DNA of 29,537 bases from a virus. Its lineage: Duplodnaviria; Heunggongvirae; Uroviricota; Caudoviricetes. The position numbers were made by a program, and so were the translations under genes. How positions within the stretch are numbered: position 1 is the stretch's first letter; each line of letters begins with the position of its first letter. Below are positions 18 through 17,677 of this stretch, piece after piece. The notes below the pieces were generated by a model, which was not told the origin of the DNA, made no database searches, and saw only the letters and a program-made list of their open reading frames with translations. The stretch lies in the IMG/VR virus record IMGVR_UViG_3300032007_001569; one strand, given 5' to 3'.

Positions 18-446
18 ATGTTTGATATTTAGGCTATTACCTCGCCGAAGCCTACTGATTGCGGCGCAACATGCCTGAAAATGTTGCTTGCTTACTATGG
101 TGTAGATGTTCCGCTGGCTCAGCTAGTCAAAGATTGCAACACTCGCATTTCTGGTTGCACGGCAAAAGACATTCTCGTCGCTGGCCGTTTGCATGGCCTG
201 AACGACATGATCGCGTTCAAAATGGACGCCGATGAGCTTATTCGTCAAGATCGTCCGGCGATTATCTGGTGGCGCTTTAATCACTGGGTTGTTTTTGACG
301 GTGTAGACGACGAAGGCAAAGTCGTCATTTGCAATCCAGACAAGGGACGCTATCGCATGAGTAAAGGTACATTTACCAGCTTTTATACTGACATTAGTCT
401 CTGGAATGGGGAGCCGCACGATATTGATGAGGTAGAAACGGCATGA
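18..446 (+). pseudogene. Stand-alone C39-family cysteine peptidase with an in-frame amber stop at codon 5
   Basis: RBS AAGGAGG (4-10), ATG at 18, reading MFDI*AITSPKPTDCGATCLKMLLAYYG in frame with the 81..446 ORF. The catalytic DCG motif (Cys codon 60-62) lies upstream of the called start; NHWVV (His) and NPDKG follow. Confidence 0.7.
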
Positions 447-1282
447 AATTCGACGGCTCTAATTTAGAAGCTGTAGTTGATGAACATCTTCGCTGGCTTA
501 ATGAAGAGGCCAATGATGATGGCGAAATCCTCGACGATTGGCGCGCAGATTTTTCTGGAGCTGATTTACATGGCTGTGTTTTAGCCAATATCCCATTGTA
601 TGGCGCACTTTTTTGCGATGCAAATTTACGCTACGCTGATTTAACCGGCGCGGATTTATCACGGGCTGATTTTTCGCGAGCGAACATGTGTGGCGCACGG
701 CTCGAATGGGCCAATCTGCATCAGGCTAAAAATCTTCCTTTTGTGCCTATGGCGTGTCCTGATACAGGAAGTTTTATCGGCTGGAAACAGGCGCTATACA
801 GATATGCCGATGGGACGCTTGGCGGAAGAGTTATCTTAAAGCTACTCATTCCAGAAGATGCAGAAAGAACATGCGATACAAAGCGCGAATGCAGGGCGAC
901 GAAGGTAAAGGTTTTAGAAATACAAACTATTCAAGGTGATGTTCTGATTGATTCACCATCGGATGACTGCGCTGTCTCAATCAAGAACCATACAACGGAA
1001 TATCATGTTGGTGAAATTATAACAGTTCCAGATATTAGCGCCGATGACGGATTCTTTCGTTGGAATGGTGTATGGCATTATGAAAGAGGCCTCTTCTTTT
1101 TTGTGAACCGAAAAGAAGCCGTCTTCTATTTATCTGCTGGCGAAGATGGAGATGGAAATCCAATAGACGCGCATCGAGAGTTTATCAGAATAATAAAAGA
1201 GAAATCTGAAATGGCTGGCATAGAGGCATATAAAGATACGGAGCAAGATAAAGCAATGCAGATTTGGCAGGGTAAAGCATGA
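443..1282 (+). CDS. Pentapeptide-repeat protein with DUF5758-like C-terminal domain
   Basis: A(D/N)LxxADL repeats (ADFSGADLHG, ANLRYADLTGADLSRADFSRANMCGARLEWANL), then CPDTGSFIGWK...KLLIPEDAER...CRATKVKVL; ATGA overlap with the upstream gene. Confidence 0.85.
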   Translation: MKFDGSNLEAVVDEHLRWLNEEANDDGEILDDWRADFSGADLHGCVLANIPLYGALFCDANLRYADLTGADLSRADFSRANMCGARLEWANLHQAKNLPFVPMACPDTGSFIGWKQALYRYADGTLGGRVILKLLIPEDAERTCDTKRECRATKVKVLEIQTIQGDVLIDSPSDDCAVSIKNHTTEYHVGEIITVPDISADDGFFRWNGVWHYERGLFFFVNRKEAVFYLSAGEDGDGNPIDAHREFIRIIKEKSEMAGIEAYKDTEQDKAMQIWQGKA

Positions 1283-1614
1283 GTGATATTCCTATATTTG
1301 ATATTTCTGAAAAATGCAAACAGTGTCCTCAGTTGAACAATGCATCAGTAAGCGTATTTTGCGACGTAAAATTTGACCCAAATAAAAGCGGCATTGATAG
1401 GTGTGTCTTGCCAGAGCTAGAGGAGCTTTGGAAAAAAGGAATTGAAACAACGTGCTCATGTTGCGGCCACGGTGAACCAGATACGGCATGGATTGTGGTC
1501 AAAACAAATTATCGCCAGAAAATGATCGATCTCGGCTATGAAGAACGTCATCCAAAATACTACGACTGCTCATGCGGGACATTCTTTCGCGCAAAACTCA
1601 GAGGTGCTGTCTGA
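1279..1614 (+). CDS. Hypothetical Cys-rich phage protein
   Basis: ATGA overlap with the upstream gene; GIETTCSCCGHG motif; function not recognised. Confidence 0.65.
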   Translation: MSDIPIFDISEKCKQCPQLNNASVSVFCDVKFDPNKSGIDRCVLPELEELWKKGIETTCSCCGHGEPDTAWIVVKTNYRQKMIDLGYEERHPKYYDCSCGTFFRAKLRGAV

Positions 1615-1646
1615 GCCGAAACAATATTATTCATGGAGGCGCTTTA

Positions 1647-2081
1647 ATGGAAATAAACATTCAAGTTGAAGGTCAACGGTTACGGATCGAATCAAATTAT
1701 AAAAGATTAGTATATGGCACTCGAAAATTTATCAAGTTCATTTTTGACTTCAGTGATGACTGGGATGGGCTAACTATATTTGCCCAGTTTGTTCAAGATG
1801 GCGAAGATCGTAATGTCTTTTTAGATGCTGATGGAAGTGTATATTTGCCGTCAGACATTAAACCCGGCAGATGCGACATGATTTTATATGGTACGGGCAA
1901 TGGCGATATTATTGCAACATCAAATTCACTTGCATTTTTAATTGATGATAACCATGTGATTATTGATGAAAGTAGTATAGGCATTACTCCATCTCTATAT
2001 GAACAACTTGTTGCAAAGGTCAACGAAGTTACTAATAGCGTTGCGACCGTTGCTGAAGTCAAGTCGTTTTTAGAGATATAA
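1647..2081 (+). CDS. BppU N-terminal-like baseplate/fibre-associated protein
   Basis: RBS GGAGG before ATG 1647, a better start than 1572. MEINIQVEGQRLRI...FIFDFSDDWDGLTIFAQF pattern is typical of BppU_N-like phage proteins. Confidence 0.65.
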   Translation: MEINIQVEGQRLRIESNYKRLVYGTRKFIKFIFDFSDDWDGLTIFAQFVQDGEDRNVFLDADGSVYLPSDIKPGRCDMILYGTGNGDIIATSNSLAFLIDDNHVIIDESSIGITPSLYEQLVAKVNEVTNSVATVAEVKSFLEI

Positions 2082-2094
2082 AATGGAGGGGCTT

Positions 2095-4527
2095 ATGGCT
2101 GAACTAGAAAAGAAATTAATAGATTTGGAAGGTCTTAAAGTCCTTCACGAATATGCCGAAAAGACATATGCAACCGGCGCGGAAGTTGTTACACTAAACA
2201 ATCGCGTCGACTCAATTATTGCGTTACCTGATGGAAGCACTACCGCAGACGCAGAGCTGGTTGATATGCGTGTAGGCATCAATGGCACAACATATCAAAG
2301 CGCCGGAGATGCTGTCAGGGCGAATGCGACGGCGATTGAATCATTGATGGATGAAACGTACATCCATAAGACGAATATAGATGATTTTTACTGGCGGCCC
2401 AAAGTGCGGGTAAACTCCGCCGGGGCCTACGCCACCAATCAGGCCCATTACACGGGCATCTACGCGGATTCAAGCCAGAATCTGCTGTACGTGTACCCGG
2501 GGAGCACCGTGATGGCAAACGCCGGCTATGTCATGGACTACTCGATCAAATCCGAGAGCGGCGCGACGCTGGAGAAGCAGCAGGGGGTAGCGGCGGAAAC
2601 GGTGGTCACCATCAGCCACTACGGCGCGCTGCGCCTGTCTGTGACGGATGTGGACGGCACGGCGGACACCGGCACCGCCGAGAGCGCCGCCGCCGTGGCG
2701 AAGGCGGGGTTGACCATCGACCTGGCGACAGAGCCGATCAAGGACACGGTGGCGCGGAACGCGACCGACATCGCCGAGCTGCAGAGCGCCGTCTCAGCGG
2801 ACGCGGCGGCGGTCGCGGGGCTGACGAACGCCATCTACATACACGACGAGATCACGCCGGAGCTGGAGCAGGGCTCCATCACCACATCAAACGGCCAAAA
2901 TTCAGTGGCGGACAATCGCGTCAGGACTGGCTTTTACACCTACGCGGCCCCTGTGTCCGTGACCATCGGCAGCGCATACAAGTACTCCTGGCGGCGGTAT
3001 CAGGCGGACGGGACATATATCGACAGCTCCGACTGGATCCCCGAGAGCAGCACGCTGGAGTTTGCCGTGGGCCAGAAATTCCGGCTTGTTGTCGCGTATC
3101 AGGAGAGCGGCTCGATCACGCCCAGCGATGTAACAGAGCTCTCGCTCTCCATGTCCGCAATCACCGACACACTGCTGACCAAGCCGGGCAAGGCGGCGGA
3201 CGCGAAGGCCACGGGCGACATGATCCGGCAGATCGCCCGGTATGAGCACAGCGTTTCGCCTACGAGTGCGCTTGTCGGCAATGTAAGCATACGAGCGGCG
3301 AAGACGATCAATTTCAGCGACGGCACGCCGCCCATGCACGAGTGGTATCTGCTGCAGAGCACGAGCAACGCCTTTTACAGATCGAAAGACCTGTCGAATA
3401 AAGAATATTTGTTCACATTCACCCCTCCGAGCGGCAATGTGGCCGACTGGTCTGCGGGCATTACCGCCTCGAACGACGTGCTTTTTGTCGCCGACGCCGC
3501 TGGGCTATCCTATGATGTCAACGGACGACTGAGTGACGATAACAGAATTAACCCAGTGGTTTTCTTAGCATCGGAGAATTACTCTGTTATGCACACGATT
3601 GATTTTGGGAGTGCTCTTAAACCTTGCGGTTGGCTGGAAAATGTCGGTTACTGCTTGCTCCCGAGCGGCGACATTGTTTTTTGCGAGTACACGCGGGGCA
3701 CGGTCAAAACCGCCAACGTCTGGCGCGTGTCCGGCGATGTAACGGACGCAGAAAACTGGACGGTAACCTGGTCGCACGACATCATTGACGCGATGCAGAC
3801 CGGGCCTGATGGCATAAAGCATTGCCACGAGATGCAGTATGATTTCTATACCGGTATCGTTTATTTTGGAACAGGAGACAGCGAGACTGGTTCACAGAAT
3901 TACTATAGCACAGACAATGGCATGACATGGACGCGAATCTACGGTTCCGGCACAGATCAGAAAAACCGATGCAGACGATTGACGTATGTGTTTACAAAAG
4001 ATCATGTGTACTGGGCCAGCGACTCCTATCAGTCAGAAAATCATCATTTCTTTATTGCCCAGCGCGACAGTGACGGTGTTGTTGACATTGCGAATGCTAC
4101 ACAGATTGATTTGCCGAGTACGAATAACCAGGCGTGTTATGGTTGCGTGTACCTTCAAGCGCTCAACACAGTGGTTATGATGGATAGAATCGACAATGTA
4201 GGCGGTAGCGTATTTTACTGGTATTGCTATGACATCGACGCGCAAGCGGTGAAACTGATCGGGACGTTTAATTCTGTTGGCTCAATTACAAATGCACATC
4301 TTGGGTTTAGATGCAAATTCGTAGACTGGTATCCGAAGTTAAACGCGATATTAACTGGTTTCAATCCGCGCAGCGGATCGTATAACCCGGACACCAATGT
4401 CAACGCTTTATGCGGCAATCGCGGTGGAGAGACTGGAACAGGTGACAATAGGATCAATAACCTAATCATGTATGTTTACAAATCCGGCTCGGAATACTCA
4501 TTCAGAGCTGATACGATGTGGATTTAA
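2095..4527 (+). CDS. Mosaic virion fibre/receptor-binding-like protein with C-terminal Asp-box (BNR) beta-propeller
   Basis: RBS GGAGGGG before ATG 2095. Contains phage fibre motifs AELVDMRVGINGTTYQSAGDAVR and TLLTKPGKAADAKATGD, and the Asp-box YSTDNGMTW at 3904-3930. Confidence 0.65.
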   Translation: MAELEKKLIDLEGLKVLHEYAEKTYATGAEVVTLNNRVDSIIALPDGSTTADAELVDMRVGINGTTYQSAGDAVRANATAIESLMDETYIHKTNIDDFYWRPKVRVNSAGAYATNQAHYTGIYADSSQNLLYVYPGSTVMANAGYVMDYSIKSESGATLEKQQGVAAETVVTISHYGALRLSVTDVDGTADTGTAESAAAVAKAGLTIDLATEPIKDTVARNATDIAELQSAVSADAAAVAGLTNAIYIHDEITPELEQGSITTSNGQNSVADNRVRTGFYTYAAPVSVTIGSAYKYSWRRYQADGTYIDSSDWIPESSTLEFAVGQKFRLVVAYQESGSITPSDVTELSLSMSAITDTLLTKPGKAADAKATGDMIRQIARYEHSVSPTSALVGNVSIRAAKTINFSDGTPPMHEWYLLQSTSNAFYRSKDLSNKEYLFTFTPPSGNVADWSAGITASNDVLFVADAAGLSYDVNGRLSDDNRINPVVFLASENYSVMHTIDFGSALKPCGWLENVGYCLLPSGDIVFCEYTRGTVKTANVWRVSGDVTDAENWTVTWSHDIIDAMQTGPDGIKHCHEMQYDFYTGIVYFGTGDSETGSQNYYSTDNGMTWTRIYGSGTDQKNRCRRLTYVFTKDHVYWASDSYQSENHHFFIAQRDSDGVVDIANATQIDLPSTNNQACYGCVYLQALNTVVMMDRIDNVGGSVFYWYCYDIDAQAVKLIGTFNSVGSITNAHLGFRCKFVDWYPKLNAILTGFNPRSGSYNPDTNVNALCGNRGGETGTGDNRINNLIMYVYKSGSEYSFRADTMWI

Positions 4528-6127: not shown

Positions 6128-7180
6128 ATGAAATCTCAAATAGACGGAAGAAGCACTGTATACAATGCAATCACATCGGATGAGAAGTTGAGTCGGATTC
6201 ATAAAGAGAATAAAGAATTAGAACGTGACTTCCTAGAATATCTGTCTTCTACAAATAAATCCAAAGAAACGATCAAGCAGTATCGCGCGAATCTGCATGT
6301 TTTCTGGTGCTGGAATCTGGAATACAATGACAATAAGCGTTTTACAAAGATTACAAAGAGAGAACTTGTTCGCTTCCAGAAACATGCACTTGACGAGTGG
6401 GGCTGGTCTCCACGGAGAATGCGGACGGTAAGGGCTACGATCTCATCATTGAGCAAGTATATTGAAAACATCCTTGATGACGAGTACGAAGATTACAAAG
6501 CTATTATTGGGAAAATTGAACCACCGCCCGATTCTGAGGCAAGGACAAAAACGGTGTTCAAGGAAGAGGAACTAAATGCGCTTCTGGATTACCTCGTAGA
6601 GAAGAAGGATTACATGAAGGCGTGTGCGCTCTCACTGGCTATAAACAGTGGGCGCAGAAAGGCGGAACTCCCCCGCTTCAAGGTCGGATATTTCAGGCCG
6701 GAATTTACAATTTGTAGCGGGGCGTTATACAAGACGCCAGAGATGGTGCAGACAAAAGGACGCGGCGAAGATGGGAAGCCGCTTTTTTTATACACTCTTA
6801 CTGCCCCATTCAATCCATATCTCGATCTTTGGCTTAAAGAGCGGGAACGCTTGGGTATTGTCAGCCAATGGCTATTCCCAAAGCGTAAGCATGGCGCATG
6901 GCTCGACGAACCAATCGAAATCAGTACACTTGATTCTTGGGCGAGAACTTTCAGCAAGTTGCTTGGCAAGGCTTTTTATTGGCACAGCATCCGGCATTTC
7001 TTCACTACGAAGCTGGTCTCATATGGTATTCCGGCTGCGGTGATACAGGATGTTGTCGGATGGGAGTCTGCCGACATGGTAAATCGATATGATGATACTG
7101 ACAAAGACGACCGTTTTGAAAAATACTTCGGAGCTGAAGGCATCCGAAAAGTCGAAGCGGGATCGCTGGAAAAAATCTAA
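6128..7180 (+). CDS. Tyrosine recombinase, SPbeta YomM-like, within the tail module
   Basis: Catalytic set present: SGRRKAE (R), TKGRG (K), HSIRH (HxxR), GW, RYDD (Y). SAM-like N-terminal domain; lies directly upstream of the TMP, as yomM does in SPbeta. Confidence 0.9.
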   Translation: MKSQIDGRSTVYNAITSDEKLSRIHKENKELERDFLEYLSSTNKSKETIKQYRANLHVFWCWNLEYNDNKRFTKITKRELVRFQKHALDEWGWSPRRMRTVRATISSLSKYIENILDDEYEDYKAIIGKIEPPPDSEARTKTVFKEEELNALLDYLVEKKDYMKACALSLAINSGRRKAELPRFKVGYFRPEFTICSGALYKTPEMVQTKGRGEDGKPLFLYTLTAPFNPYLDLWLKERERLGIVSQWLFPKRKHGAWLDEPIEISTLDSWARTFSKLLGKAFYWHSIRHFFTTKLVSYGIPAAVIQDVVGWESADMVNRYDDTDKDDRFEKYFGAEGIRKVEAGSLEKI

Positions 7181-7240: not shown

Positions 7241-9712
7241 GTGGCAAGCGCTAATGACTTTGTAACCAGAATAGCGACTAGACTTGATACAACTGGTTTT
7301 GACCAGGCAATGAGAACACTTGTCAATACCAACCATCAAGTGGATGTTTCGCTTAATATGGCTACAATAAACCGCCAGATTACAGATTTGGAGCACAGGC
7401 TTCTTAACCTGAACAATCTGTTCAACAACGCTGGCGGTGGTGCTGGTGGCGGTGGTGGCGGTCGAGGACGTGGCCGTGGCAACAATGTATTTGACCTAAT
7501 GTATCGCGAAGCTGTCGATACAGCACGGGAAATCAGCCAAATCCGAATATCGCTTCCGCAAATTGATACGCGCACAAACGCGCGGCAAATCAATGAAGCG
7601 ATGGGTCAGCTTAACGCGCTGGAGGCTAGATACCGTCAGCTTATGCAGACGCTCAATGGCAACCTCACCGCGAACCAGGCATATACGCTTAACCATATTC
7701 TCGATACGCGCGGCAGACGAGTTGACCTTGCGACTGCGATTGTTGGCGACACGAACCAAATCAATGAAGCGCGAAGAGCATACGAACAACTGTTCTCATT
7801 GGCTCAGAGAATTGGTTCTATGCAAACACAGATCGCCGGATTGGACGCGAGTAAAAACGGCGGTCAGATTGCCACGCTGACTAATCAGCTTAATCAGTTC
7901 CGACAGGAGTATGCCAATGTTTTGCAGAGCGTTACGACACTCAGCCGCGAACAGCAGGATAATATTCTTGGTGTTTTTGAAAACACGGGGAATCAGCTAG
8001 ATGTTATTGCGGCAAAATTAGCAGACGCCAGACAGCGGCTCGCCGAATCAATCGGACAAAAGATTGACAATGGTGAATTGGAATCGAGCATTTCAAGACT
8101 CAGTGCCGGTTATGAGCGGTTAGGAAGCGTTGGTGGAGAAAAGGTAAAAGCGCTCAAAACAGATATTGATGAATTAAAGCAAATTCAGTCTGACCTATCT
8201 CAAACACACGATGTTGACCAGATCATATCAATGTATGAGCGGTTCAAAGATACGGCGGCGCGCGCGAAAAATACAATATCAGAATTATCTGTTGAGCAAA
8301 AACGCTTTGCGTCGGCCTCACAGGTTAATGCGTTTGACAAACAGCTATCAAGCTGGCTTGAACGCAACCGGAAGTCCGCTGGTGAATTTGGAGTATCTGT
8401 TGAGCAGGTTCAGCAGAAGCTACGCGAATTGGCCGCGAGCGGCAAAGTGCCGATAACTGTACTGAATCAGCTACAAAAAGAGTTTGCTGAAACAGATATG
8501 GAGGCGCGAAAGGCTGGTGCAACGACCAGTGCTCTCCAGTCTACAATGCAGAGCCTCGGCGACCAGTTGAAGAGATACCTGTCGTTCGCTGCGGTCGTCA
8601 ATCTGTTTAAGCAGATGGCGAAGGAAGTTCTTGCGGTTGATACAGCCATGACGGGCTTGTATCGAGTGACAAATCTTTCTGCAAGTCAATATAAACAACT
8701 ATATTCGCAGATGGTTCAATCTGCAAAGCAATATGGTTCTACGCTGACAGACATTATTGACGCGACGACCGGCTGGGTTAAGCTGGGATTTGCGCCAGAT
8801 GTCGCACAACAACTTGCAAACATCACGGCAACCTATCAGCACGTTACGGATTTGGATTCTGGAACGGCGGTTAAAAACCTTGTTACAGCCTACAAGGGTT
8901 TTGAAAAACAGCTTTTGGAGGCAAATAACGGTAATACTGCTGCGGCCATAACTCAAATCACCGACATATATGATAAGCTCGGTAACGAGTTTGCTGAAAG
9001 CGCGGCAGACTTAGGCGATGGCTTGTCGAAATCCGCTTCCGTTCTGGCAACAGGTGGCGCTTCAATTCAACAAGCGGCTGGCCTATTTACAGGCATACAA
9101 GAAACGATTCAAGATAGTTCTGTCGCTGGTCAGACGCTAAAGATTTTAACTTTGCGTATTCGCGGCATGAAGGGTGAGCTGGAAGAGCTTGGCGAAGAGG
9201 TTGATGATGATGTCGATTCTCTGTCCAAGGTACAGACGCAAATTCTGAATCTTACACACGGGAAAGTCAACATCTTTGACGATCAGCAGAATTTCAGAAA
9301 TATCTATGAAGTCCTTCGTGATATTGCCGGAGTTTATGGCGAATTGAATGATGCCGATTCTGCTGCATTGCTTGAAGTCATTGCAGGTAAGAACCGCGCA
9401 AACGCAGTTCAGGCATTGCTTAATCAGTGGGATCAGGTTGAAAAGGCTACTGAGGCCGCATACAATTCTGCTGGCACCGCTGCCGCAGAACAGGAAAAGT
9501 ACATGCAGTCTTTGCAGGGTCGTCTTGATTCATTCAAGGCTTCCTGGCAAGCTCTGGCAAATGATGTTATTGATTCAGACCTACTTAAATCTGGCGTCGA
9601 TTTCGGCGCTCGTATACTAGACACAATAGACGCGCTCATCAATCGCATTGGCGTTCTTATTCCGCTCGCCACGGCATTGACAGCGGCGTTGAGCTTCAAA
9701 TCTAAAACCGGT
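7241..9712 (+). CDS. Tail tape measure protein, exon 1 (824 codons)
   Basis: TP901-type TMP core (VDTAMTGLYRVTNLS...YGSTLTDIIDATTGWVKLG...). TMP-like sequence ends at KSKTG (GGT 9710-9712), the predicted 5' splice site; the last 28 codons of the called ORF (to 9799) are intron sequence. Confidence 0.9.
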
Positions 9713-10242
9713 GAACTAATTATCAGTTCCGATGCAGACTACACTATGCACCGAGTGCGCCGGAAAGCTACTAATGGTAACATGAACGATGTCGCGTGAT
9801 AATTCGCTTCGCGGCAAAGAGGGCTTTAAGAATCGTCGTTAATTGGTATGGGTGGCTCCGTACCCGAAGAGACTGGGACGAACTGTGCGTGAACCTACAT
9901 ACGACGCATGGAACTATCAGCAGCTATATCCCTATGCGAAGAAGGGAAAGTTCAGAGGCTACCAACGCGCACGGAAGCGATTGGCTTTCGTGAAGGTATA
10001 GTCCAAACTGGGATCGGCAGTAGGATAAAGCCGATTCAAAAAGCCAAGCCAGTGCGCTAACTGGCGTGTAGAAAATAGCGGGGTGGCACTCCCCTATCAT
10101 GCGTGAGATAAAATGTGCGTTTAATCAATGAGGCATAGCTCGTTCGGTGAGTGATTGTGGAGGTTTGACATGGGGTTGGCGTTTAGCCGTTGTCCGAATA
10201 GGGTTTCCGAAAAAGAAAAACGCAGTAACTTCTAAAAGGTGA

Positions 10243-10271
10243 TTGCCATATGGTTCGCCGCAGTGTATAAT
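10243..10271 (+). promoter_or_regulatory. sigma-A-type promoter inside the intron
   Basis: TTGCCA (10243-10248), 17-nt spacer, TATAAT (10266-10271); followed by RBS GAGGTG and GTG 10297. Confidence 0.75.
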
Positions 10272-10296
10272 AATAGGAAGAAATAGAGGTGATTAT

Positions 10297-10965
10297 GTGG
10301 AAAACTTCATACTGTTAATGCTCTTTACTTATCCTGGCGCGATTTCATACTGGGTATATACTAGATGCGCAAGCGACAAAACGTTTTACGTCGAACCAGA
10401 TTCTTTTAGCAGGACTGCAATTTCTTGTTTTTGCAGTATTGTTGTGACTTTATTGACGTTGTTAATTTCATCGTTGTTCTATCATATACCAAGCATCAGC
10501 GGCCTCACAAAATTCCTAACAGAAACTAATAATATATGGTTTTATGTTCTTGCCTCATTAGGTGTTAGCGTTTTTGTTGGGTTTTTATGGTATGCCATTT
10601 ATTATATTCAATATGAAATAGACAATAAGCGCAAGAAGGAATCAAAGAAGTCGCCAGCAGGATTATATAAGTCCGTTTGGGTGCAATTATTGAAGGAGTA
10701 CGAAATCGGCGGCTGTATTGTGATTATTCGGCGCAAAGGCCGCATTGTAAGAATGGGATTCCCACAGATCATCCCCGATGAAATAACATCTGATTGTGGC
10801 ATCGTCCTTTCTTACTGCGGCGAAGTTGAGAACGAATACGCAAAAGAAAACCACGGCCTCATTCAGGAGCGCGTATATAGTTATTACGATATGCACAATG
10901 ACGTTGAGCTTGAATTTCTCAATGCAAAAGCTCTAGCAAAAGCCATATCGAAAAAGAAACTCTAA
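10297..10965 (+). CDS. Intron cargo: multi-TM membrane protein (DUF6338-like)
   Basis: GTG start with RBS GAGGTG at 10286-10291; about 3 hydrophobic helices, starting LLMLFTYPGAISYWVY, then a soluble C-terminal domain; AT-rich (17/60 GC in 10561-10620). The family label is by resemblance only. Confidence 0.75.
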   Translation: MENFILLMLFTYPGAISYWVYTRCASDKTFYVEPDSFSRTAISCFCSIVVTLLTLLISSLFYHIPSISGLTKFLTETNNIWFYVLASLGVSVFVGFLWYAIYYIQYEIDNKRKKESKKSPAGLYKSVWVQLLKEYEIGGCIVIIRRKGRIVRMGFPQIIPDEITSDCGIVLSYCGEVENEYAKENHGLIQERVYSYYDMHNDVELEFLNAKALAKAISKKKL

Positions 10966-10976
10966 AAACTAGATTC

Positions 10977-11144
10977 CTATCTACGCTTAGGCTTCTTTCG
11001 CGGCTTTCGCGTTTCGGGTTTGGGGCGCGGTTTAGGCACTATCCCAATGGATGGCTCATGCGAGTGCGCTATTTTTCTGGCGATAAGTTTTTGCCTTCTG
11101 CGCCCTATTACCCTGATATGACGAGCGATTTTTGAGCTTCTCAT
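10977..11144 (-). CDS. Intron cargo: 55-aa Arg/Lys/Pro-rich peptide (not in the ORF track)
   Basis: AGGAGGT RBS 6 nt before ATG 11144, overlapping the stop of the upstream gene; MRSSKIARHIRVIGRRRQKLIARKIAHSHEPSIGIVPKPRPKPETRKPRKKPKRR*. Confidence 0.55.
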   Translation of the reverse strand: MRSSKIARHIRVIGRRRQKLIARKIAHSHEPSIGIVPKPRPKPETRKPRKKPKRR

Positions 11145-11156
11145 TCATAAACCTCC

Positions 11157-11714
11157 TTACCACTTATATCCGCAGTTGTTACACTTAAACTGTGCCCGCG
11201 CCGTAGGATTCGCTACGCCGAACGCGGTTTGAGCCAAATCCCTGCGGATGCCGGAAACGGGAACGATGTCCGTGCTACCACAGGTCGGGCATTTGGGAAC
11301 GAGGCCGAGGGCCTGTTTGATGTATGGATCGTCGGTGCGGATTGTGCCAGTGGTTATGAGCTGGTGGGCATAGTCGTCAAATTTGGCTTCGGTTTCACGA
11401 ATGAGATTTTGCTTGTGTTTCTTCCAATGCTTAACCGTATTTTTCCAATCGTGTGTAGTTGAATAATATCTATATATTGCACCAATTAAGCCTATAATGG
11501 TCAGAACAAAGCAAATCAATATGGCAAAGTTGGTGACGCTCCTATCTACGCCATATAGGTTTGAAAATACAATGATTCCAACAACCCCTACTACGAGCAC
11601 CTTAAGATAATTTCCAGAAGTATAAGTAAACCGTGGTTTAGGAGGTTTCTTCATTGCAATAATATCTTCGATTGCATTGGTTTTAATTTTGTCAAGGGAT
11701 TGAATATCAAGCAT
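11157..11714 (-). CDS. Intron cargo: two-TM membrane protein with C-terminal zinc ribbon
   Basis: Two hydrophobic helices (VLVVGVVGIIVF, FAILICFVLTIIGLIGAIY); CPTCGS...CNNCGYKW; RBS GAGGT upstream. Confidence 0.85.
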   Translation of the reverse strand: MLDIQSLDKIKTNAIEDIIAMKKPPKPRFTYTSGNYLKVLVVGVVGIIVFSNLYGVDRSVTNFAILICFVLTIIGLIGAIYRYYSTTHDWKNTVKHWKKHKQNLIRETEAKFDDYAHQLITTGTIRTDDPYIKQALGLVPKCPTCGSTDIVPVSGIRRDLAQTAFGVANPTARAQFKCNNCGYKW

Positions 11715-11756
11715 AATCTTTTACCTCGAGGCCGATCACAACGAACTTCAATTAAC

Positions 11757-11785
11757 ATTATATCAGTATACCATTTGTTTGTCAA
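11757..11785 (-). promoter_or_regulatory. Perfect-consensus sigma-A promoter, antisense to the TMP
   Basis: Reverse strand reads TTGACA (11785-11780), 17-nt spacer, TATAAT (11762-11757), about 45 nt upstream of ATG 11714. Confidence 0.9.
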
Positions 11786-11827
11786 CCTTATTTTGCTGGC
11801 AATTCACGCACGCAAGCAAATAGTTTG

Positions 11828-14800
11828 GCGCTCTTCGTTGACATAACAAAAGGTGCAGCAAAAGCAACGGCCTCTATGAAGGCGCTTAACATTGCAGCAA
11901 ACGCTGCCATTATAGGTGTTGCTGCATTTGGAGTTCAATTAATAGCTCAAAGGATAAACGCCCAACGTGTACTTGCAAATCAAGTAGACGATATTGTAAG
12001 TACATACAAGCAGAGTATTTCACAATTCGATTCAAATAAAGGCGAATTTGATAGCCTAGCAAAACGATATGTAGAATTAGGAAATGGCGTTGATGAGCTA
12101 GGCAAGAATATATCCCTAACTACAGAAGAGTATTCTGAATATCAAGAAATTACAAATAAAATAGCTACTTATGTACCAAGCCTCGTTAGAGGTTTTGATG
12201 ATACTGGTACTGCCATTCTAAATGTTAAGGGTAATGTTGAAGAGTTGATTGCGGCATATGGTGCGATGGGTGATGCCGCAAATAATTCTATACTTGAGAA
12301 CGCTTTTAACATATTCGCAGATTTTAAGAATAAACGAGATGCAAGAGCCGCAGGGAAAATGGACGATGTTATTTCTACGGCCCTTGATATTGTTGGCATA
12401 CATCCAACGCGAAATGATTATGAAATGCCGAAGTATGCTTATGATGTATTACAACGCGCTGTTAATACCAATGATATAGATTCTTTCGTTAATCAATGGG
12501 GCCGGTCAAATTTCAATGGCCGCACGCAACTATTCGATCTATTAAAAGAGATTGCACCATCAATTTGGTCTAAACAGCTTGAAGCATACAATATGCACCA
12601 AAAATCATATTTGGATGCGGAAATTGATTTCCTTAGAAACGCACTACAAGATACATCAACACATTTTGCCCTAGAGAACGTAGTTTCTGCATACGATCAG
12701 CAAAGTAGAGAAATGATTACTGGGCTGTCTACTGTCGCAAATGCCTATCTTAAAAATAAATTTAGCACTGACATGGCTGATATGCCAGATTCATTAAAAA
12801 ATATAGTGCATGGATGGGTTGATAGCAGAGACTATTCATTCTATGAATCTATTAAAAGTGAAACTGAGATATACGATGCGATAAATGGTATTATTGATAT
12901 AGTATCTCAGCTACAAAATTATACCGTAAAAATGCCTGACACCGCTGGCAATGTCAACCTTAAAAACAGAAAAGTAATTGACGCAGCAAAACTTGCAATG
13001 GCTGGATGGGATGACGCTGGCGAAGGCATTGCCACTCTATTCTCTTCAACTTACAGCGCTGGCAATAAGGAACAGGGATATGATTATGAGTACGGCAAAA
13101 ATGTCGTGATTAATTGTACCCCAATTCTACCAGATGGTTCCGTATTAAGCCCGCAGGAACTTGAAGACTATTTATATGATATTATTTCTAGCGGCCGAGA
13201 CCTTCTAGAAGCCGACAAACCAGAAAATGGTGGTTTAGGTTTATTACTAGGCATTGATGATGTTAAAGGTACACTTGAAGATGCCTACGAGGAAGCCGAG
13301 CGGCAAACTGAACGTCTACATGTTCTTCAAGATTATTACTACAATAATCGAAACGCTGGCGAACCGATCATCGCAGCATTCGATATAAGCACTAAGTTTA
13401 ATGGCAATGAGTGCTCTATTGATGAGTATCTTTCTGCGATGGCAGAAGCACAGGATGCGTTTTCAGTCCTTGACCCGGAGACACAAGCCATTATTGCACC
13501 AGAGCTAGACCTCAACACTGAAAAGCTCGAACAGCAATACGAGAACATGGTCAATCGCCTCACCAATGCTTTTGGCGGCGACAAGAGGGGGCTTATTGAA
13601 GAGCTGCTCGGTTCGTTGACCGGCGAAGAGTTTGCAAACCTCTACTCCTTCGACGGCGAGTTCCTAGACATGTCTTGGGATGAATTGCAGAATATCATCA
13701 CCGGCGTTCAGGAATTGACAGAAGCCGCAAAGGAATTTACCTTTACGCTGGACGATGAGAGCGCGGCGCTGGATAAGGTCACAGAATCTATCAGTGCTTC
13801 CGCGACGGCTACCGGTCTGAGCGCCGAACAAATCGGGCTTCTCGTTGATCGTTACAGCGAGCTAGACGGTTATGATCCTTCTAAACTATTCGAGCGTACA
13901 GAGCACGGCATCCACCTAAATGTCGATGCGTTGGAAGAGCTGGAGGCTCAGTACAGGAAGATCAAATTCGACGGCCTCAATAAACAGCTTGACGAACAGA
14001 TTGACAAGTATAACGAGCTGACAAAAGAGATCAATAACTGCAACGATGCGTTCGAGCTTGACAATTTGCGCAAGGAGCAATCTGCTGTTCTGGCGCAAAT
14101 TAACAGCACGGCAAATCTTATCGCCCAATACAAGGGCTTGACTTCAGCGTATAACGAATGGCAAAAAGCCCTTAGCACACCGAATGAGGGCGACGCTTAC
14201 GATAAGATTACTTCTGGTATTGAGTCTACTTTGGAGCTTCGCAAGAAGGGGCTTATTGGTACAGACGATTTCCAGAAATTCGCTCAATTATTCTCGTATA
14301 ACGATTTAACAGGACAATCTGCAAGCGAATACGCTAAGGTATTTGATACTCAATACCCAAAAATGAAAGCCTATTTCACGGATGGTTATGAAGGTTGCGA
14401 GGCGTTTCTTCAGAAAGTTCATGAGCTAAACGCTGAGTGGGCCTCACTCGACGATAACGGTAATTGGCAGTTTGATTTTAATAGTGACGAACTTGCACAA
14501 GAACTGGATATTAGTGTCGAAGCGGTTCAAACAATTCTTGACAAGCTCAAGGATTACGGTTTTGACGTACATATCAATTCAAATACCGAAGAAATTGAGT
14601 CACAGCTTGAACCTGTTAAAAATACCATCGAAAATGAGCTTGGCGACGCGAACGCAAATCCGACGATCACTTGGCAAAACAAGACGGACGCTGTTGACGC
14701 TTTCAAGCGTAAGACACATTTAGCTTACGGTGAGATTATTTGGAAGAATATTACCACAACGGTAAATACTTCCACAAAGACTGTCACCACAAAAACTACA

Positions 14801-17677
14801 TCAACAACCGGTGGTAGTAGTGGTGGTAGTACAGGTGGCACTAAAAAGACACCTCCGAATGGAGCTACCTTTACGCCAACTTATACCGGTACAGCCTATG
14901 CCAGCGGGGATTGGGGAACCAAAAAATCTGGTACGGCCCTGGGCGGAGAATTGGGCACAGAACTATTGGTGCGCGGCGGACGTTTTGTAACCATTGGAGA
15001 TCATGGCGCAGAACTTTTCAACTACAAGCGCGGCGACATTATCTTTAATGCCGCTCAAACCAAGGAGATATTTGAAAAAGGTAGAGCTATTTCCAACGGC
15101 GGCAGAGGCAGAGCGCTTGTTACAGGTACGGCGTTTGATTATGGTTCGGGCGGATGGAACTTGTATGATCCAAGCACCGGCATATCAACCGCCACGACAA
15201 GCACAAAGACAACCACTTCCAGCAGCTCTTCATCATCCTCTTCATCTTATTCCTCATCGTCCTCTTCTTCCGATTCAGATACTTCTATATTTGATTGGAT
15301 TGAGGTCGCGGTTGAGCGCATCGAGCTATTAATCAGCAGATTAGGCCGCACAGCCCAAAGCACCTTCCGCAATTTGACCAGGCGTTTGTCTGCTACATAT
15401 GACGAAATCTCTAAGGTTGGCGGAGAAATCCAAATCCAGCAGCAGGCGTACTATCGTTACCTGCAACAAGCAGAATCCGTTGCCCTTGACGAGAATCTGA
15501 AGCGCGCCGTTCGCAACGGCGTGATTGACATTCGGGAATATGATAGCGCTACCCAAGAGCTGATCGATTCATACTCCGAATGGTACAGCAAGGCGCTTTC
15601 GGCGGCAGACGCGGTCGAAGAATTAAATGAAACTCTTGGCGAGTTGTATCAGTCTCGTTTCGAGGCAATTCAAACCAATTTTGAAAATAGCCTTGCCTTG
15701 TTCGATCACATGACAACTTCATATGGCAACGCTCTCAATATGATTGAAGAACGTGGTTATATGGGCGGCGCTTCTCTTTACAGAGAAATGCAGAATGTTG
15801 AGCGGGAAAACATCGTCACTCGACAAAATGAGCTTAAACAACTGACACAAGCAATGTCCGACGCTGTTAATTCTGGCGCGATTGAGCTGTATTCTGAATC
15901 GTGGTACGAGATGCAGCAAAATATCAATGCTGTAAAAGAGGGCATCCAAGAATCAGAAATTGCGCTTGTCAAGTATGGCAATGCGATTCGCCAGATTGAT
16001 TGGGATGTTTTTGATTACATGCAGAACCGGATTGGCAACATCACCTCGGAGTCTGAGTTCTTAATCAAGCTACTGGGCAACTCCGAGTTGTTTAAGGAGA
16101 ACGGCCAGCTTAACGAAAAAGGGCAAGCGCAAATGGGCTTGTATGCCATGAACTATAATGTTTATATGGCACAGGCTGACAAATATGCGGCTGAAGTAAA
16201 ACGCATCAATGCGGAGATTGCGCGCGATCCAGCCAATAAGACACTGATTGAGCGCCGCGAAACCCTGCTGAACTTACAGCGTCAGTCTATCGAGGCGGCA
16301 GAAGATGAGAAGAAGGCTGTTCGAGACCTCGTTGAAAACGGGATCAAGATTGAGCTTGATGCGCTAAAAGAACTGATAGACGCATATGAGGATTCCATTG
16401 ACAGCGCTAAAGATTTGCACGATTACCAAAAGCGCATTGACAAACAGGCTGGCGAGGTTGCCTCAATCCAGAAGCAACTTGCAGCGTATGCCAACGACAC
16501 GTCCGAAGAAAACCGGGCAAGGCTTCAGAAATTGCGGACAGACCTGTCTGAGGCAATGGAAGAGCTGAACGAGACGCAGTACGATCAGTTTATCAAAGAT
16601 CAGAAGAAACTACTCGATGATCTATATGCTGATTATGAAAGCCTGTTAAATCAGCGGCTTGATGATACAAATGCGCTTATGGGCGACATGATTGATGCGA
16701 CGAATCAAAGCGCGGCATTAATCAGCGATACCATTATTGAGCAAGCAACACAAGTCGGATATACCTTGTCTGATAGTATGATGACAGCGTGGGAGAATAG
16801 TGCGACTTTCGATGTCGTAACCAGATATGGCGCTAGTTTTGATTCTCAGCTAACGACCGTAAACGCAATGCTCTCACGAATTGCGGCCAGCGTTGCCGAT
16901 GTAGTGCGCTACGGCGATATGATCTCCAGCAGTACAATCAGTAGCACAACATCAACAACATCTACCGTGTCATCGCCTGGACTTCCTACTGCTTCGCATA
17001 CTGCGCTTTCTGCTTCGGAAGTCCCATATACTCCCCCAGCGCCTACATCATCAAGTAGCGGTTCCTCTTCCGGCTCATCTGGTTCTGGATCGGGCTCCGG
17101 TAAGAGGGTTAAGGTTGGCGCGGGAACATGGTGGATAAGGTCTGCGCCGAGTATGTCCGGCACGCAATTAGGCGTTGCGAAAGAAGGCGACAAATTCACT
17201 TATACCGGCACGACAAAAAATAATTTCAATGGTATTATTTATAAGGGACAAAATGCCTGGATAAGCGCATCAGGAAGCAGCATCATTGGTTATAAGACAG
17301 GCGGTATCATTGCGGATATGCAGAAGGTGGCAATGCGCAATGGTGATGATATGATAACTGTCAATACCTTGAAAAAGGGCGAAGGCATCATGTCAGTTTC
17401 TCAAACAGAAGCGTTTAGAAAGATGGTTGAGCACTTACCGGCGCTGGAGGGCATCGTAAGCGTCTCCGGCTCTCTTTCCAAATTCAGAAATGGTGCTCAT
17501 AGTGCGGGCACAGCCAATACCTTTGAAATCAACATTCCCATTGAGCATGTGCAGGATTATAACGATTTTGTTATGCAGTTAAGGAATGACGGCAGGTTTG
17601 AGAAGTTTATCCAATCAATTACTGTCGATACGGCAGTTGGTGGTAGCAGACTCGCCAAAAATAAATTTCAATGGTGA
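11828..17677 (+). CDS. Tail tape measure protein, exon 2 (1949 aa); spliced TMP 2773 aa
   Basis: Begins ALFVDITKG directly after omega-G, with no SD before TTG 11825. Long helical and Trp-periodic regions, YASG...GELGTELLV TMP motif, Ser/Thr linkers, an SH3b-like domain near the C-terminus; followed by Dit. Confidence 0.9.
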   Translation, partial: ALFVDITKGAAKATASMKALNIAANAAIIGVAAFGVQLIAQRINAQRVLANQVDDIVSTYKQSISQFDSNKGEFDSLAKRYVELGNGVDELGKNISLTTEEYSEYQEITNKIATYVPSLVRGFDDTGTAILNVKGNVEELIAAYGAMGDAANNSILENAFNIFADFKNKRDARAAGKMDDVISTALDIVGIHPTRNDYEMPKYAYDVLQRAVNTNDIDSFVNQWGRSNFNGRTQLFDLLKEIAPSIWSKQLEAYNMHQKSYLDAEIDFLRNALQDTSTHFALENVVSAYDQQSREMITGLSTVANAYLKNKFSTDMADMPDSLKNIVHGWVDSRDYSFYESIKSETEIYDAINGIIDIVSQLQNYTVKMPDTAGNVNLKNRKVIDAAKLAMAGWDDAGEGIATLFSSTYSAGNKEQGYDYEYGKNVVINCTPILPDGSVLSPQELEDYLYDIISSGRDLLEADKPENGGLGLLLGIDDVKGTLEDAYEEAERQTERLHVLQDYYYNNRNAGEPIIAAFDISTKFNGNECSIDEYLSAMAEAQDAFSVLDPETQAIIAPELDLNTEKLEQQYENMVNRLTNAFGGDKRGLIEELLGSLTGEEFANLYSFDGEFLDMSWDELQNIITGVQELTEAAKEFTFTLDDESAALDKVTESISASATATGLSAEQIGLLVDRYSELDGYDPSKLFERTEHGIHLNVDALEELEAQYRKIKFDGLNKQLDEQIDKYNELTKEINNCNDAFELDNLRKEQSAVLAQINSTANLIAQYKGLTSAYNEWQKALSTPNEGDAYDKITSGIESTLELRKKGLIGTDDFQKFAQLFSYNDLTGQSASEYAKVFDTQYPKMKAYFTDGYEGCEAFLQKVHELNAEWASLDDNGNWQFDFNSDELAQELDISVEAVQTILDKLKDYGFDVHINSNTEEIESQLEPVKNTIENELGDANANPTITWQNKTDAVDAFKRKTHLAYGEIIWKNITTTVNTSTKTVTTKTTSTTGGSSGGSTGGTKKTPPNGATFTPTYTGTAYASGDWGTKKSGTALGGELGTELLVRGGRFVTIGDHGAELFNYKRGDIIFNAAQTKEIFEKGRAISNGGRGRALVTGTAFDYGSGGWNLYDPSTGISTATTSTKTTTSSSSSSSSSSYSSSSSSSDSDTSIFDWIEVAVERIELLISRLGRTAQSTFRNLTRRLSATYDEISKVGGEIQIQQQAYYRYLQQAESVALDENLKRAVRNGVIDIREYDSATQELIDSYSEWYSKALSAADAVEELNETLGELYQSRFEAIQTNFENSLALFDHMTTSYGNALNMIEERGYMGGASLYREMQNVERENIVTRQNELKQLTQAMSDAVNSGAIELYSESWYEMQQNINAVKEGIQESEIALVKYGNAIRQIDWDVFDYMQNRIGNITSESEFLIKLLGNSELFKENGQLNEKGQAQMGLYAMNYNVYMAQADKYAAEVKRINAEIARDPANKTLIERRETLLNLQRQSIEAAEDEKKAVRDLVENGIKIELDALKELIDAYEDSIDSAKDLHDYQKRIDKQAGEVASIQKQLAAYANDTSEENRARLQKLRTDLSEAMEELNETQYDQFIKDQKKLLDDLYADYESLLNQRLDDTNALMGDMIDATNQSAALISDTIIEQATQVGYTLSDSMMTAWENSATFDVVTRYGASFDSQLTTVNAMLSRIAASVADVVRYGDMISSSTISSTTSTTSTVSSPGLPTASHTALSASEVPYTPPAPTSSSSGSSSGSSGSGSGSGKRVKVGAGTWWIRSAPSMSGTQLGVAKEGDKFTYTGTTKNNFNGIIYKGQNAWISASGSSIIGYKTGGIIADMQKVAMRNGDDMITVNTLKKGEGIMSVSQTEAFRKMVEHLPALEGIVSVSGSLSKFRNGAHSAGTANTFEINIPIEHVQDYNDFVMQLRNDGRFEKFIQSITVDTAVGGSRLAKNKFQW

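Follow-up and report, generated by a model that had tools for sequence, protein, structure and literature searches.

A probable group I intron with exchangeable accessory cargo in a rumen siphophage tape measure gene

IMG/VR virus record IMGVR_UViG_3300032007_001569 is a 29,537-nt stretch of phage DNA assembled from a sample of bovine gut, referred to here in its whole length as the window. In it, a large rumen siphophage tape measure protein (TMP) gene appears as two open reading frames (ORFs) set apart by an insert of 2115 nt (9713-11827). This raises the question of what the insert is and whether the two ORFs still belong to one gene. The reading that we favour and consider probable is that a 2115-nt group I intron with exchangeable accessory cargo interrupts the gene between its Thr-Gly and Ala-Leu codons. 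We are fairly confident that the insert is a functional group I intron.

The ORF list of the window places ORF 7241-9799 and ORF 11825-17677 in the same reading frame. A Pfam search found the PF10145 domain in the first of them, and the TMP profile phrog_4211 (2625 positions) runs through both in colinear order, with positions 427-953 in the first ORF and 1005-1644 in the second. The start of the second ORF was then used as a query in a homologue search, which yielded 62 long TMP homologues. When the two halves were joined, the unbroken homologues P0013, P0037/38, P0056, P0058 and P0011 each spanned the junction KSKTG|ALFVD in single high-scoring segment pairs. The best motif match at the junction was that of P0011 (FESLNGIGLF against FKSKTG|ALF in the window). 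Since unbroken homologues align across the junction and a single profile is colinear with both parts, ORFs 7241-9712 and 11828-17677 are, as judged from their sequences, two in-frame halves of one TMP with a correctly placed junction. The in-frame split described in the original prediction is thus upheld. The two exons are as follows.

7241..9712, + strand: TMP exon 1, 824 codons, ending in ...AAA ACC GGT; PF10145 and phrog_4211.
11828..17677, + strand: TMP exon 2, 1949 codons and a stop codon; phrog_4211 positions 1005-1644.

Searches for relatives with the second half of the TMP and with the cargo protein of the reverse strand, described below, gave eight further lineages or fragments. The last 9 nt of exon 1 (AAAACCGGT) are invariant across six lineages, though the adjacent codons vary. 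Compared with the relatives, dN/dS is 0.10-0.24 in exon 1 and 0.07-0.30 in exon 2, which points to purifying selection on both. Inspection of the sequence upstream of exon 2 revealed no Shine-Dalgarno sequence or other ribosome-binding site (RBS).

The 5' end of the insert holds a group I-type core of ~400 nt. The pattern TTCAGAGGCTA-N-GGTATAGTCC, which joins the R and S motifs, occurs a single time in the window (9951-10004) and in 0 of 100 shuffles. R is GUUCAGAGGCUAC at 9950-9962 and S is AAGGUAUAGUCC at 9993-10004; together they form a P7 with the guanosine-binding G-C pair, as had been claimed for this locus. Both P7 strands recur unchanged in L011, an intron that the Rfam group I model RF00028 verifies at 84 bits. 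The guide GAGUGC-GCCGG (9753-9763) pairs with both exons. The wobble U9712.G9759 in P1 marks the 5' splice site, and GAGUGC (9753-9758) forms P10 with GCGCUC at the start of exon 2 (11828-11833). Our reading of the sequence agrees with the original prediction on the guide, the U.G pair of P1, P10, the P9.0 pairing UUU/AAA and omega-G at 11827. From P6 on, the layout is that of the RF00028 consensus and of L011, with the GC...GU closing pairs of P6, UCA as J6/7, P7, two nucleotides, the P3 3' strand, P8, GAAGGUA as J8/7, the P7 3' strand and P9. The spacing between P7 and the P3 3' strand is 2 nt (CC), and neither P7.1 nor P7.2 is present. The elements of the intron are listed below in their order.

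9708..9763, + strand: P1, exon CCGGU and intron GAACU (9708-9717) paired with the guide AGUGCGCCGG (9754-9763); L1 of 36 nt with a small hairpin.
9764-9770/9821-9827, + strand: P2, with the inner P2.1 at 9790-9799/9804-9816; four variants fold alike independently.
9834-9840/9964-9969, + strand: P3, invariant among the relatives.
9845-9864, + strand: extra hairpin between J3/4 and P4, from independent folds.
9873-9876/9917-9920, + strand: P4 of 4 bp, invariant; J4/5 is GACGAA.
9883-9890/9904-9911, + strand: P5, from the core structure model.
9923-9933/9943-9951, + strand: P6, with two compensatory pairs.
9957-9961/9999-10003, + strand: P7, from the R/S pattern, invariant.
9970-9978/9984-9992, + strand: P8, with one compensatory pair.
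10005-10007, + strand: P9.0 5' strand AAA, pairing with UUU 11824-11826.
10011-10018/10030-10037, + strand: P9, from independent folds, alike in the window and L001.
10048-10065, + strand: P9a, from independent folds, with one compensatory change.
10080-10094, + strand: P9b, from independent folds.
10100-10107 with 11803-11810, + strand: closing helix of 8 bp, UGCGUGAG with UUCACGCA, which closes the cargo loop.
11803..11827, + strand: intron 3' tail with the closing strand, UUU 11824-11826 (P9.0) and omega-G 11827.

An earlier assignment of P3 and P4 (9793-9797 with 9965-9969, and UUCGC with GCGAA) was dropped, since it puts the P4 3' strand in the loop of P6, a helix with two compensatory changes. 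It should be noted that the unspliced frame of exon 1 continues for 28 codons into the intron, over P1 and the guide, to a stop codon at 9797-9799. As such translation crosses P1 and the guide before it stops, ribosomes could disturb the folding of P1.

The core is conserved beyond the genes around it. Between the window and the relative L001, the compared stretch of the core is 91% identical, versus about 70% for the exons. In an alignment of six sequences on the drawn structure, 98.7% of the cells were paired, compared with 36-49% when the partners were slid. Three pairs in this alignment (two in P6 and one in P8) had changed on both sides, versus 0.5 in shuffles. Independent folds of the window and L001 yielded the same hairpins, and double changes were also seen in P9, P9a and the extra hairpin; the two or three in P9 between these two sequences include A-U to C-G and U-A to C-G. 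In L001, the bulged U of P3 is exactly deleted. The P2/P2.1 domain (9764..9827) shows one-sided, wobble-compatible changes at three pairs. Conservation extends to the far end of the insert, where the tails of six lineages have otherwise diverged and retain TTCACGC and AGTTTG|G as their sole conserved islands. The first of these is complementary to the invariant GCGUGA at 10101-10106. The six lineages keep AAAACCGGU, AGUUUG|G and the closing-helix strand. The first 6 nt of exon 2 occur in five forms (GCGCUC, GCACUC, GUACUC, GCAGUC and GGAUUC), each of which retains 5-6 of the 6 P10 pairs with the guide.

The anatomy suggests how the gene would be expressed. The late transcript would carry the whole insert, and its first ~400 nt would fold into P1-P9. 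The 8-bp helix (10100-10107/11803-11810) would then bring the 25-nt 3' tail to the core across 1.7 kb of cargo. Splicing initiated by guanosine at U9712.G9759 and completed at omega-G 11827 would join the exons into one TMP frame of 2773 codons, and the loop closed by the helix would serve as a cargo bay.

The cargo lies between P9b and the closing helix (10108-11802). The three genes and two promoters that the original prediction had placed in the insert were recovered, the ORFs being confirmed and the promoters matching 12/12 (minus strand) and 11/12 (plus strand) positions. The description of the cargo as AT-rich holds for part of it and fails at 10900-11400, where the GC content is 0.45-0.575. 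An element that had been missed is a drum-like RNA (10123-10228). The cargo comprises the following features.

10123..10228, + strand: drum-like structured RNA (RF02958), the first cargo element.
10243..10271, + strand: predicted sigma-70-type promoter TTGCCA-17-TATAAT for the DUF6338 gene, 11/12 matches.
10297..10965, + strand: DUF6338-like membrane protein gene, GTG start, RBS AGAGGTGA, 222 aa.
10977..11144, - strand: very basic 55-aa ORF with RBS AAGGAGG, directly downstream of the reverse gene.
11157..11714, - strand: reverse gene for a 185-aa protein with an MKKPxKP N-terminus, two transmembrane helices and a C-terminal CPTCGS...CxxCGYKW zinc ribbon.
11785..11757, - strand: predicted extended sigma-70-type promoter TTGACA-17-TG-TATAAT for the reverse gene, 12/12 matches.

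The drum-like RNA matches RF02958 over the full length of the model at 40.9 bits (E 1.2e-5), with the gathering score at 43, and the relatives score the same. It was found in L003, L007, L010 and L015 and is absent from L001. The published drum motif is followed by a terminator (PMC5737381), whereas none follows the drum-like RNA of the window. As the promoter at 10243..10271 lies downstream of it, the RNA is not in the mRNA leader of the DUF6338 gene. A role as RNA partner of DUF6338 was considered and rejected, because no drum lies near the DUF6338 homologues of L136, L137 and L139 and because L015 retains the drum with other genes downstream. By its distribution, the drum thus appears to be linked to this intron rather than to DUF6338.

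The DUF6338-like protein scores 25.1 bits against PF19865 (cut-off 26.5) and 0.96 in the atlas search to DUF6338 clusters; its L007 relative is marked 'faint'. Its structural model (pLDDT, the predicted local distance difference test, 69) has three long N-terminal helices and a C-terminal alpha/beta domain. The reverse gene is present in every relative of the intron, and the model of its product has a pLDDT of 79. Both hexamers of its promoter are kept in all tail variants, while the surrounding sequence diverges. Four variants preserve the frame of the 55-aa ORF even though a 2-nt indel lies upstream. Between L007 and the window, about 9 nt differ in one ~36-nt stretch of this ORF with a single amino-acid change. 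This pattern suggests that purifying selection keeps its frame in the four variants.

Searches of the cargo against Pfam, PHROGs, NCBIfam and PADLOC detected no HNH, GIY-YIG or LAGLIDADG motif, in line with what had been stated for it, no His-Cys, PD-(D/E)XK or other nuclease family, and no transposase or defence family. The reverse protein gave weak, sub-threshold matches to generic and insertion sequence (IS)-type zinc ribbons. Fold searches with the models of the two larger cargo proteins returned uncharacterised or generic helical and zinc-ribbon matches only, and the C-terminal domain of the DUF6338-like protein was barely covered. A DUF6338 homologue with 41% identity lies between a serine integrase and CI/Cro-type genes. 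A homologue of the zinc-ribbon protein with 48% identity lies beside a CI-like repressor and next to tRNA genes, outside any intron. Judged by these neighbourhoods of integrase and repressors, both larger cargo families behave elsewhere like accessory genes of lysogeny modules. The cargo would consist of moron-type genes expressed independently of the late operon; we propose this because of their own promoters, the membrane topology of their products and the lysogeny-module homologues. That the cargo acts in superinfection exclusion, or otherwise protects the lysogen or infected cell at the membrane, is a tentative suggestion, with chances that we put a little short of even.

RNA-library contigs from one bovine gut sample match the intron with 100% identity at 9869-10066, 10294-10854, 10986-11162, 11204-11354, 11555-11705 and 11631-11781. 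They are weak evidence compatible with cargo transcription, and DNA carry-over is possible. The contig 11631-11781 overshoots the start site predicted for the antisense promoter by about 30 nt and would accordingly reflect sense-strand intron RNA, another start site or DNA carry-over.

Comparison of the relatives shows that the cargo is exchanged. Version V1, the set of the window, is also carried by L003, L007 and L010. Version V2 consists of the reverse gene alone (L001 and L002; intron of 1122 nt). Version V3 combines the drum, four other small ORFs and the reverse gene (L015; intron of 2453 nt). On the reverse strand of L015, ORFs of 87, 55, 188 and 70 aa (871-2093) follow an intact drum; the 188-aa ORF encodes a membrane protein with a weak DUF3978 match, and none of the four matches a known family. 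Phages that are only about 70% identical in exon 1 share 96-99% identity in the 5' part of the intron, which reaches from the core through the 55-aa ORF. L010 is a mosaic that combines L001-type exons (95%) with an intron 5' part of the window type; on the left the breakpoint falls no more than about 10 nt from the 5' splice site, and on the right it falls inside the reverse gene. The high identity of the intron 5' part relative to the exons, together with this mosaic, indicates that the intron or its 5' module moved recently between lineages. The relatives thus give good support to the idea of a peripheral loop serving as a cargo bay. The original prediction had described the ribozyme as a neutral landing pad for accessory genes. 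This description gains from the finding of the same ribozyme with three cargo sets in one loop and loses the novelty of its location, which is discussed below. Its further proposal was that purifying selection on splicing may protect the site.

The TMP genes of this family carry other insertions as well. In L003 (reverse strand), sibling insertions of 1.2-1.6 kb lie at the window equivalents of 8983/8984 and about 15907, and L010 has one about 300 nt upstream of the focal intron. Two of these are near the threshold of RF00028 (46.8 and 44.9 bits). In L003 and L010, the ORFs of these insertions gave E values of 1e-10 to 1e-55 against HNH and homing-endonuclease PHROGs and served as a positive control for the domain searches. 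The near-threshold scores and the endonuclease ORFs indicate that the TMP gene family is intron-prone. The window itself has none of these sibling insertions. The 1190-nt insert at 8983/8990 was also seen in a DNA run of a 90-95% relative. We also observed that many long TMP homologues (P0002-P0012, P0026, P0047 and P0050) start mid-gene at a few recurrent positions, about 230, 190 and 100 residues before the junction equivalent; other intron sites or truncated contigs would fit these starts.

Two neighbouring features were noted. A tyrosine-recombinase gene of 350 aa (6128-7180, + strand; PF00589, phrog_1 integrase) lies directly upstream of the TMP gene, within the tail module. Its position is kept in L001, L002, L003 and L007 and is an odd site for an integrase. 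Located a few kb upstream of its tail genes, at 172-3244, L001 carries a DUF6273 gene and then a reverse transcriptase (RVT_1), an arrangement that looks like a diversity-generating retroelement.

The scans for similar cores used the pattern TTCAGAGRCTA-N15-45-GGTATAGTCC. Among 185,579 species genomes it found one site, L011, which scores the 84 bits with RF00028 mentioned above and lies next to a tRNA gene. This group I intron occupies 4112-4342 of a contig in a Saccharibacteria genome bin, just upstream of the tRNA gene, and its R and S strings are identical to those of the phage intron. RF00028 matches 8 of the 20 sampled metagenome sites with the R/S pattern, and three more contigs hold such matches elsewhere. 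The metagenome scan also gave more than 120 other group I-type sites, none of which shows a relation to this core other than the R/S motifs. Scans of viral contigs for exact patterns gave no match, and neither did searches of isolate phage genomes with the locus DNA, the drum element and the DUF6338 protein.

Several results weigh against a functional intron with accessory cargo. The Infernal check with a group I model that the original prediction had called for came out negative: RF00028 gave no match, even at E<=10, on the window, the relatives or slices of 225-2600 nt (2.6 kb, 441 and 225 nt). In the T4 control, the same model placed one locus over its cut-off and gave another two 36-40 bits (E 1e-8 to 1e-10), and these three loci are presumably the three known introns of T4. 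Since the T4 loci score while this core is silent, the core is unusually far from the model. A miss at the gathering score is common, but total silence is unusual; it is likely due to the large P2/P2.1 domain, the 36-nt L1, the extra hairpin and the 4-bp P4. The extra hairpin (9845-9864) between J3/4 and the short P4 is not a textbook layout, and another register of P4 can be drawn. P3, P4 and P7 never vary, which leaves the pseudoknotted part of the core without support from covariation. The structure was drawn from the same sequences that were used for the pair counts, and just two well-diverged core variants were found. The ligated-exon junction AAAACCGGU|GCGCUCUUC was absent among the contigs of the RNA library, and no RNA contig fell on either exon within 8800-12800; these data are assembled contigs of depth 2-5 from one sample and are uninformative on splicing or exon expression. 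Finally, the function proposed for the cargo is drawn from its context only, the fold searches having returned nothing but uncharacterised proteins.

Three other explanations of the insert were weighed against this evidence. Were it simply an island of accessory genes between two tail genes, with a core that resembles a group I ribozyme by chance, the negative Rfam search and the cargo's own promoters would be expected. We regard this as most improbable, as none of the shuffles contains the R/S pattern, unbroken homologues run colinearly and in frame through the junction, and the non-coding core is conserved and covaries. The insert might instead be a decayed, splicing-incompetent relic of a group I intron, with two tail proteins, or the first only, made from the two ORFs. 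The failure of the covariance model, the atypical P3-P4 layout and the lack of junction RNA are compatible with this, as are the natural stop of ORF 1 29 codons into the insert and the in-frame TTG at 11825. However, conservation is stronger in the core than in the exons, and the core changes in a compensatory manner; six lineages retain the nucleotides at the splice sites along with P10 and the closing helix; the TTG at 11825 belongs to the conserved UUUG omega-G motif and lacks a Shine-Dalgarno sequence; and the unbroken homologues are single proteins. Decay is therefore unlikely in our judgement.

A mobile element of the IStron kind is likewise an explanation to which we give little credence. 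In such an element a cargo product, for example the zinc-ribbon protein and perhaps the drum, would be an unrecognised nuclease or transposition factor. The ribozyme stands 5' and the cargo just before the 3' end, as in IStrons (PMC4227781); the reverse gene is the sole cargo common to all versions; its product has the weak matches to IS-type zinc ribbons; and the left breakpoint of L010, so close to the 5' splice site, suggests movement as a unit. On the other hand, the reverse protein, with its two transmembrane helices, lacks a catalytic domain, and homologues of it occur next to repressor genes rather than in introns. No TnpA, TnpB, HNH or similar family was detected in the cargo, the ribozyme lacks the P7.1/P7.2 of IStron (IA2) ribozymes, and the right breakpoint of L010 lies inside the intron, as ordinary recombination gives. 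We therefore retain the reading of a group I intron with exchangeable accessory cargo. A further proposal, speculative and in our view improbable, is that ribozyme, drum and cargo form an endonuclease-less 'cargo shuttle' that moves as one unit between TMP alleles of separate phage lineages, exactly at the splice site, and whose cargo excludes competitors. Movement would then occur by reverse splicing or with a nuclease acting in trans, and the drum might aid movement or the control of the cargo. The delivered membrane proteins could block competitor phages at TMP-dependent DNA entry.

Phage group I introns are usually viewed as selfish elements kept by a homing endonuclease. Here, the loop that normally houses the endonuclease would act as a bay with exchangeable contents, namely accessory genes with promoters and a structured RNA, inside a gene that the phage cannot lose. 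If splicing occurs as proposed, it would let phages park accessory genes midway in a late operon simply and free of cost, and drum RNA could be studied in a new setting. It would also be a warning for annotation, because 'two tape measure genes and an island' in gut phages may be one spliced gene. Our literature search found no paper on phage group I introns that house a drum RNA or accessory genes with promoters of their own.

Related arrangements are known from other systems. Organellar group I introns may house non-endonuclease genes, such as rps3 in the fungal mitochondrial rnl intron. The housing of such genes by group I introns is stated in general terms for the class (PMC4227781). The likeness lies in the residence of a functional gene unrelated to mobility, whereas organellar cargo consists of host housekeeping genes on the same strand that are expressed from the intron RNA and the cargo of the window consists of promoter-bearing phage accessory genes. 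Sie2009 and Ltp are superinfection-exclusion proteins of lactococcal and streptococcal phages, which are small, membrane-anchored and expressed from their own promoters. The cargo resembles such morons in encoding small membrane proteins under promoters of their own, with homologues that lie between integrase and repressor genes. It differs from them in that no sequence or fold relation was found, its genes lie inside a late structural gene, and they are not known to confer an exclusion phenotype. Exclusion of the Ltp type is reported to act on the TMP of the incoming phage (PMC3952083).

The IStrons CdISt1 and BcISt1 (Tourasse et al. 2014, PMC4227781) share with the window a 5' group I ribozyme and non-endonuclease cargo in a terminal loop before a short 3' tail; their cargo also varies in content and follows the P9 subdomains. 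Unlike the window, they have an IA2 ribozyme with P7.1/P7.2 and carry IS200/IS605 or IS607 mobility genes at many sites, while the window has neither hairpin, no transposase and one fixed site. Its cargo comprises membrane and small proteins and an RNA.

The original prediction had given DNA-metabolism, terminase and lysin genes as the usual hosts of phage group I introns, a statement that is incomplete, as TMP introns have been in print since 2008 (PMC2504315) and the ICP1 intron is spliced (PMC10448857). The TMP genes of Bacillus cereus-group prophages hold the group I introns TMP-IVS1, IVS2 and IVS3 (Tourasse and Kolsto 2008, PMC2504315). These share with the intron of the window the host gene, the in-frame position and an early stop within the intron; several lack a complete endonuclease gene, and the same intron occurs in different phages, as here. 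They differ in being small and either empty or with endonuclease remnants, with no promoter-bearing accessory genes or structured RNA reported, and, according to the same paper, they partly match the introns of SPbeta nrdE, Twort and the like, whereas the core of the window lacks P7.1/P7.2. In phage ICP1, a TMP intron with an HNH endonuclease gene is spliced, as RNA-seq and reverse-transcription PCR have demonstrated (Barth et al. 2023, PMC10448857). There too the TMP gene is split and the content of the intron varies among isolates between constant flanks; unlike the window, its cargo is a homing endonuclease and its splicing has been shown by experiment (PMC10448857). Given the B. cereus introns of 2008 and that of ICP1, the location in a TMP gene is not new, and it is the cargo alone that makes the intron of the window unusual.

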